This document shows positions 54,558 to 55,817 of a stretch of 64,000 bases of DNA, one piece after another; position 1 is the first letter of the stretch, and the number at the start of each line of letters is the position of its first letter. The position numbers were made by a program, and so were the translations under genes. The notes below the pieces were generated by a model, which did not search any database, was not told the DNA's origin, and worked only from the letters and a program-made list of their open reading frames with translations. Source of the DNA: an uncultured delta proteobacterium (lineage in GTDB: Bacteria > Myxococcota_A > Polyangia > Palsa-1104); the NCBI GenBank assembly GCA_963785725.1, contig CAWAWS010000033.1, positions 363,561-427,560 on the forward strand, written 5' to 3'.

Positions 54558-55817
54558 GTGGAGAGGGCCCAACGTTGTCGCCATGGGGTGATCCTGACTG
54601 CATTGCCGAGCGAGTACGCGGCCGTCCGCCACTTCCTAAAGAATGTCGAGCAGCGACGTCATCCACGCGGCACTGTCTACGAGGTCGGCCACTTCGGCGA
54701 CGGCTCGACGGCCTGGACGATCGCGATCGTCGGTATCGGCGCCTGGAAACGCCTCCGCTGCGGTCGAAGCTGAACGTGCAATCGGGCACTTTCAGCCAGA
54801 GGTCATCCTCTTCGTCGGGGTGGGCAGGCGGACTGAAGGATGTTCGCCTCGGTGACGTGGTTGTTGGAACAAAGGTCTACAACTACGCTGCCGGCAAGGC
54901 TGCCGGGCAATTTCAACTGCGCCCCGACGTCGGCCGGTCGACCTATGACCTCGAACAGCAGGCGAAACTCGACACTCGCGCTCCTCGGATTGGATTCAGC
55001 GCGTTGAGTCAAAGTCGACAAAGCAACCGAATGCGCTACTTGGCGCCATCGCGGCAGGTGAACAGGTTGTGGCGTCTCAGCGCTCTGCCACGCATCAGTT
55101 CATCAAATCTCAATACAGCGACGCTCTCGCAGTGGAAATGGAAGGATCCGGATTTCTGAGCGCGGCGCACGCAAATGCTTCGATCCAGGCAATCGTCATC
55201 CGCGGGATCTCGGACCTTGTTCGAAAAAAGGCGCAATCCGATGCCGCAGGCTGGCAGGCAATCGCTTCCACGCACGCCGCCGCGTTTGCTTTCCAGCTCC
55301 TGTCGGATCTCAGCGTCAACGAGCGTCCCGCGAAATCTAGACGGTCCAAAGGAAAGCGCTCCGACTCCATCGACCGCTTGCCGTCCGCGATGCCGGAAGA
55401 CGGCATTACGCTATCCGGCAACGACGAGAAACTCTGATCTCCAATCTCTTGCCTGTCCGCAGCTTCGCCCCGAAATTGTATATGGCAGAAACCGAGTTTC
55501 GGGATCCGGTCGACCTCTGGAACCACACGAGAACTGCCTCGATACGGATTGGAAGCGAATGGCTTCTCAAGGGAGAGCGCATCCTTTCGTTTCATGATTT
55601 GTCGGAGCCACCCTGGAATCGACTCTGCGACGAGGGAACAATTGAGACTTTTGATTCATCAGAATGGGCCCTCTCGCCCGACTCTGACAAAAGATATGAG
55701 TTCAGCCGACTGCTCAACTCCTCACTTAGCCAGAAGCTCTATCCGACCGTGCGGTATTGGTCGAAGCTCAAGACCTACGCCTTTGCGGTGCCTCGCAACG
55801 TCACCAAAGACGTCCTT
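54558..55817 (+). pseudogene. Nucleoside phosphorylase (PNP/MTAN) domain fused to an APAZ-like domain; about 4 frameshifts, truncated by IS21
   Basis: VILTALPSEYAAVR, GNASAA, VILFVGV.GGLKDVRLGDVVV, IAAGEQVV, AVEMEGSGF and IRGISD are PNP_UDP_1 motifs. After a linker comes ETLISNLLPVRSFAPKLYMA...ILSFHDL...CDEGTIE...EW...FSRLLN. Confidence 0.8.

Follow-up and report, generated by a model that had tools for sequence, protein, structure and literature searches.

A frameshifted, IS21-truncated PNP-APAZ gene in a Polyangia genome and its intact relatives beside short Argonautes

Does the fragmented coding sequence at positions 54558-55817 of a contig from an uncultured delta proteobacterium (Myxococcota_A; Polyangia; Palsa-1104) conceal a single gene joining a nucleosidase domain to an APAZ domain, and would the product of such a gene act together with a short prokaryotic Argonaute (pAgo)? 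The window, i.e. the whole stretch of DNA analysed, comprises 64,000 nt of assembly GCA_963785725.1 (G000; completeness 88%), from position 363,561 to 427,560 on the forward strand of contig CAWAWS010000033.1 (C33). Features of the window are given in Table 1.

The locus holds a PNP-APAZ gene that is disrupted by frameshifts and truncated by an IS21 element. Starting at a GTG (54558), the PNP-like peptide moves among the three forward frames, and an open frame runs from 55425. Frameshift-aware alignment to two intact homologues, P0145 and P0225, required exactly four shifts, namely +1 at ~54743-54747 and ~54823-54826 and net -1 at ~54975-54993 and ~55397-55430 (the latter two placed less sharply), with zero stop codons on the aligned path. 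Identities to P0145 and P0225 were 140/251 and 148/246 in the PNP part; for the linker plus APAZ the figures were 63/159 and 51/159. Pfam PNP_UDP_1 was matched by three of the four PNP pieces in profile order (52-78, 79-126 and 127-230); the first piece (54558-54743) had no Pfam match of its own and was 49-58% identical to the N-termini of the two homologues. Searched against the region with tblastn, P0145 matched the PNP part (E 7.5e-50, 146 bits) and the APAZ part (E 4.8e-38, 126 bits), and the best of 200 shuffled P0145 queries reached 27 bits. No promoter was found in a scan of the + strand upstream of the gene. The first-pass annotation had described four single-base frameshifts hiding one protein, with a PNP_UDP_1/MTAN domain followed by a linker; the alignments, the shuffle control and the Pfam matches agree with that description, and the peptide motifs that it quoted are in frame at 55425-55817. 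Its anatomy was right, but it left unsaid the IS21 end at 55818 and the loss of more than half of the APAZ domain, which is complete in P0145 and P0225 and retains 131 of about 285 codons (~45%) in the window. As assembled, the window copy cannot work.

Table 1. Coordinates of the PNP-APAZ gene and neighbouring features in the window.
Feature	Position	Strand	Remarks
DUF488 gene, downstream of deaminase	52105..52737	-	Pfam DUF488 E 5e-11
Anti-phage dCTP deaminase, divergent, one frameshift ~53860	52709..54209	-	PADLOC dCTPase E 9e-138, 3e-16 (two pieces)
PNP/MTAN-type nucleosidase domain, four reading-frame pieces	54558..55305	+	Breaks ~54745, ~54824, ~54980
Linker	55306..55424	+	Fourth frameshift near linker end (~55400-55430)
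APAZ (N-L1-L2) 5' part, SPARDA/clade S2B type	55425..55817	+	131 codons, ~45% of APAZ
IS21-family end with istB, truncating PNP-APAZ	55818..56644	-	827 bp, 99.9% identical to 61478-62304; IstB_IS21 E 1e-59
Near-complete IS21 copy (istA, istB)	61478..64000	-	C33 ends inside

The larger piece of the dCTP deaminase scored 398.8 bits with NCBIfam NF041025 (cut-off 400); the deaminase is defence-island context and stands outside the PNP-APAZ system. Together with the DUF488 gene it lies in a low-GC island (56-59%), in the left part of which are a fragmentary phage integrase and, as judged by eye, a fragmentary IS66 transposase (50700-51248 and 49594-50346). Between the two IS21 ends, 56644-61477 is a mosaic of IS66 and of duplicated contig C22 sequence with pieces of glyoxalase, histidine kinase and P-type ATPase genes, which reflects either rearrangement or a mis-join. 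Within it, a 90-base T-then-A run (60139-60228) replaces 90 bases of ordinary coding sequence in the C22 copy, and is most likely an assembly artefact. Both window IS21 ends (55818 and 61478) and a relative in genome G430 (L119, L125) have an identical six-base sequence ahead of the TGGAC repeat, as an unusual IS21 terminus or a fixed target site. A reading of 55818-55823 as a target-site duplication derived from the APAZ gene was dropped, as the G430 element has these bases at both ends.

Assembly errors and true decay of the window copy are about equally well supported. If the four frameshifts are assembly artefacts near an end of the contig that was poorly polished, a reading to which slightly less than even weight is given, the gene is interrupted by the IS insertion or a mis-join alone, and the 3' half of APAZ and the pAgo gene may lie in unassembled DNA. 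The mixed +1, +1, -1 and -1 shifts with zero stops on the aligned path favour errors, as do the five gap openings that set the contig end apart from C22 over 1739 bp of duplicated DNA, a 396-codon frame that is whole in C22 and fragmented in the window copy, the single shift in the neighbouring deaminase, and the end of C33 inside an IS. Frameshift-like junctions across the genome occurred, however, at 0.04 per kb as a lower bound (42 junctions in 1.09 Mb under paralogue matches, with 900 of 2329 long open reading frames as queries), vs about 4.6 per kb at the window gene, and the IS genes of the same stretch are intact. Decay, moreover, is expected after inactivation by an IS, and three broken PNP-APAZ copies (L047, L064 and L070) occurred among 79 metagenome loci. 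In public data from three sequencing runs with small shares, no contig spanned any of the four breaks. The 3' part of APAZ was not found in G000 by tblastn with four full homologues, nor was a pAgo by Pfam Piwi or by a profile of 27 related pAgos; with the assembly 88% complete, these results are not proof of absence.

By sequence, the second domain of the window gene is an APAZ domain. PADLOC Aga_REase-PNTD1-PNTD2 was matched by 55425-55823 at E 6e-30, and SIR2-linked APAZ models were weaker. The three PDB matches of the APAZ piece were DREN-APAZ (9jsb, E 6.5e-4), a DUF4365 protein and HNH-APAZ, and its plasmid matches were DUF4365 proteins in 11 of 11 cases. Foldseek, queried with a P0145 structure predicted by AlphaFold (mean pLDDT 72, pTM 0.47, linker disordered), ranked the SPARDA APAZ chains first (E 7e-18, TM-score on target up to 0.79), followed by MTAN structures (E 9e-16, TM-score on target ~0.8). 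Profile and structure searches both thus returned the APAZ similarity that had been suggested by eye. Among the 150 listed of 318 APAZ matches, 98 were DUF4365 proteins, four were PNP proteins (P0124, P0145, P0225 and fragment P0168), 15 had other N-termini and 33 were fragments. PNP-APAZ appears from its domain content to be built on a SPARDA-like chassis, yet is not a SPARDA member: it contains no DREN/DUF4365, and PNP_UDP_1 is there instead.

Other N-termini on SPARDA-type APAZ were Trypsin_2 (P0259, P0245), DUF4062 (P0223), SEFIR/TIR_2 (P0156, P0269) and EAD5 (P0263, P0272). The protease-APAZ and EAD5-APAZ proteins, absent from the literature passages covered, may represent further unreported effectors. 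The DUF4365-APAZ proteins P0125-P0133 (~580 aa) have an extra N-terminal domain of ~145 residues, with no Pfam match in the one scanned. On a Mesorhizobium loti plasmid (L010:3503-7401), IS21 genes follow DUF4365-APAZ at the expected place of the pAgo, a disruption comparable to that in the window.

Intact PNP-APAZ genes of the P0139 lineage are followed by a short pAgo, as had been anticipated for homologues of the window gene. A metagenome scan with this lineage, in which the best 80 of 107 confirmed stretches were taken, gave 79 loci. In all 40 loci whose PNP-APAZ frame is complete and followed by 160 bp or more of sequence, the pAgo match started within 6 bp of the stop; of 15 control PNP loci lacking APAZ, each with 1.9 kb or more behind the gene, none had a pAgo there. 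The remaining loci had 76 bp or less downstream (five), left the contig inside APAZ (five) or before the APAZ match (nine), held a broken PNP-APAZ with the pAgo still behind (two), or lacked both APAZ in the PNP frame and a pAgo (18, i.e. the 15 controls, two with short flanks and L064, whose PNP-APAZ gene is frameshifted and lies where the contig ends). The three broken copies carry a linker stop in one case and frameshifts in two. The 40 loci are related to one another: the effectors of 27 of them formed 23 clusters at 90% and seven at 70% identity. The short pAgo is translationally coupled to PNP-APAZ in this lineage, their start and stop codons overlapping in 26 of the 27 loci examined (those with a full pAgo frame extracted).

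PADLOC pAgo_I was matched at E ~1e-145 by all four pAgos tested. The closest PDB entries to the PNP-linked pAgos were SPARDA pAgos (E 1e-90), whereas the clades of SPARTA and SPARSA were more distant (E 1e-40 and 5e-18). All 27 aligned pAgos (26 PNP-linked plus L002) had G-x-SF and HK[TS]S at two positions, which we take to be the first two sites of the DEDX tetrad; judged by these residues, the PNP-linked pAgos lack the catalytic tetrad. Among 401 genomes of the host class, one held an intact PNP-APAZ/pAgo pair, namely G636, with a pair of the P0139 lineage. This pair (L117:2346-9604) comes immediately after three genes in the same orientation, the last of which has a HerA-like ATPase. With regard to a third gene, no neighbour family occurred in more than three of 28 loci, and PNP-APAZ/pAgo therefore looks like a stand-alone pair. 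All pAgo-adjacent PNP-APAZ loci were of the P0139 lineage, in which the PNP shares only 25% identity with that of the window, and for the window's own lineage (P0145/P0225 type) we infer a pAgo partner by analogy. The identity of the system as a short-Argonaute PNP-APAZ is held with high confidence.

Equivalents of MtnN E12, E172, M173, E174, R193, S196 and D197 are all present in the window PNP, and its homologues keep the same residues, as do three CBASS homologues of Cap17; a PNP_UDP_1 domain with intact catalytic Glu/Asp is shared with the Cap17-type immune ATP nucleosidases. An ESM Atlas search returned generic PNP clusters only. The PNP-APAZ protein is proposed, with somewhat better than even confidence, to be the effector of a two-gene short-Argonaute defence system, killing or stalling the infected cell by cleaving adenine from ATP/dATP; the location beside an anti-phage dCTP deaminase was counted toward a defence role. 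PNP-APAZ and pAgo would form a heterodimer, the pAgo would load a small RNA guide and pair with invading DNA, and guide-target pairing would lead to an oligomer or filament, all by analogy with SPARDA, for which RNA-guided DNA recognition and filament assembly are described (10.1101/2025.04.08.647717). Assembly would bring the PNP domains together into active MTAN-type dimers, which would cleave (d)ATP and cause abortive infection, as modelled on Cap17 and DtcC. MTAN-type enzymes need a dimer.

The choice of ATP as the substrate seems reasonably probable on the same analogy. The same architecture under pAgo control could instead act on SAM, SAH, MTA, ADP/AMP, an NAD-type compound or a signalling nucleotide, the lethal step not being ATP depletion; this appears unlikely, although several results are in line with it. 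The window PNP is 24% identical to Cap17 homologues and likewise 24% to MtnN, the closest solved PNP structures are all MTANs, and the PNPs of the two PNP-APAZ lineages share only ~25-30% identity and need not act on one substrate. On the other side, both immune PNPs tested, Cap17 and DtcC, cleave ATP (10.1101/2023.01.24.525353). Substrate-pocket segments are, by eye, nearer to Cap17 than to MtnN, with Thr, Gly-Asn and Arg-Pro positions common to the window PNP and Cap17 homologues and differing in MtnN. The NCBIfam equivalog cut-offs for housekeeping MtnN were missed both by P0145 (PRK05584, 68.6 vs 169; TIGR01704, 31.7 vs 73.8) and by P0225 (72.4 and 39.1, respectively). Counting against ATP, the window PNP was not sister to the three CBASS Cap17 homologues in the PNP tree, the deep branches of which are poorly supported. 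ATP cleavage remains the preferred reading.

The intact homologues indicate that PNP-APAZ is a natural fusion and one gene, as the first-pass annotation had held. The linker lengths match as well: from the end of the last PNP helix to the first motif of APAZ the window has 137 nt (45.7 codons), and P0145 and P0225 have 45 and 46 residues. P0145 and P0225 are 56-60% identical to the window PNP part, and a profile search among long proteins gave 16 matches, seven of them with PNP_UDP_1. That a decayed PNP gene and an APAZ fragment of unrelated origin adjoin by chance, or that the two are separate genes, is very improbable: it would suit the frameshift at the PNP/APAZ junction and the lack of a pAgo match in G000, but is largely refuted by the collinear orthologues with equal linker length, and the earliest start codon of the APAZ frame, at 55449, comes only after the conserved first motif of that domain.

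Loci closely related to that of the window were not found in the collections scanned. A search for the 5-kb region in the four other genomes of the genus returned only IS ends and short matches, and among 41 other genomes of the order the model was matched in one, in its DUF4365 part only. The scan of genome contigs for close-relative loci gave one weak match of 28 residues, two scans of viral contigs gave one PNP-only locus, and zero plasmid records covered 80% of P0145 or P0139.

The PNP tree (41 rows) placed the window, P0145 and P0225 in a clade with AAA-, NB-ARC- and TPR-fused PNPs (support 100/99), and the P0139 lineage among the C-terminal PNPs of CHAT and WD40 proteins. A single clade of APAZ-fused PNPs was rejected (p-AU 7e-5) after removal of four long-branch rows (L106, L107, L108 and L099, of which L106 and L107 are probably wrong-frame cuts), the grouping having been suggested by the APAZ tree and by identities seen earlier. 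The best APAZ tree (97 of 310 APAZ-bearing rows) scattered PNP-APAZ among DUF4365 proteins, and a single PNP-APAZ origin was not rejected on it (p-AU 0.25). As the APAZ-fused PNPs do not form one clade on the PNP tree, the fusion likely arose at least twice, by recruitment or by PNP replacement on the S2B chassis. Tentatively, and with a little less confidence than evenly divided opinion would warrant, PNP-APAZ may constitute an unnamed fifth short-Argonaute output: an ATP nucleosidase that is programmable by guide and is activated as its MTAN domains dimerise in SPARDA-like filaments induced by the target. It would have been invented on at least two occasions, with PNPs grafted from NLR-like and from CHAT/WD40 proteins. 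The SPARDA chassis, which also carries trypsin, SEFIR, DUF4062 and EAD5 domains, would then be a general plug-in platform.

The idea of an Argonaute-linked PNP-APAZ effector, put forward by the first-pass annotation as a candidate new type, stood as to the class and the pAgo link, through the intact loci, but not as to its novelty. PNP domains as effectors of short pAgo systems, with ATP degradation proposed, were described in silico only by Rousset et al. (2023; 10.1101/2023.01.24.525353), and the class is therefore not new as a concept. The statement is repeated in the table of a review (PMC10952713). In the portions covered of PMC9097488, PMC10810196, PMC12738770 and 10.1101/2025.04.08.647717, PNP or phosphorylase was absent. 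No experimental study of a PNP short-pAgo system was among the matches listed by the literature search, which left most subscription journals outside. The window locus belongs to a predicted and apparently untested subtype, but the copy is broken and useful only as a pointer. To our knowledge, characterised short-Argonaute effectors act by NAD depletion or nucleic acid degradation. Intact two-gene candidates are supplied by L012, L068, L074 and G636/L111. The pairing is strict within the P0139 lineage, repeated independent recruitment is pointed to, and the 2023 prediction is now directly testable. A sequence-programmed ATP nucleosidase, if true, would offer a simple luciferase read-out for nucleic-acid detection.

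Compared with known systems, PNP-APAZ resembles SPARDA (DREN/DUF4365-APAZ, clade S2B; PDB 9JSB, 9QBP and 9QCC) in the sequence and fold of its APAZ, and its homologues share with SPARDA the two-gene layout and the pAgo family. The place of the DREN nuclease is taken by the PNP/MTAN nucleosidase, and the predicted output is nucleotide depletion as opposed to the DNA degradation by SPARDA. Housekeeping MtnN has the fold and the catalytic residues in common with PNP-APAZ, which differs in scoring far under the NCBIfam cut-offs, in its fusion to APAZ and in its defence context. Cap17 (CBASS) and DtcC (Detocs) share PNP_UDP_1, the catalytic Glu and Asp and several pocket motifs with the window PNP, whereas identity is only ~24% and their sensors are a cyclic nucleotide or a phosphorelay in place of a pAgo. 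The PNP short pAgo systems of Rousset et al. (2023) have the same domain pairing and the same proposed mechanism, in a text that does not use the word APAZ. SPARTA (TIR-APAZ) and SPARSA (SIR2-APAZ) follow the same logic of Argonaute-triggered metabolite depletion (PMC9097488); they deplete NAD, whereas ATP is the predicted target of PNP-APAZ.
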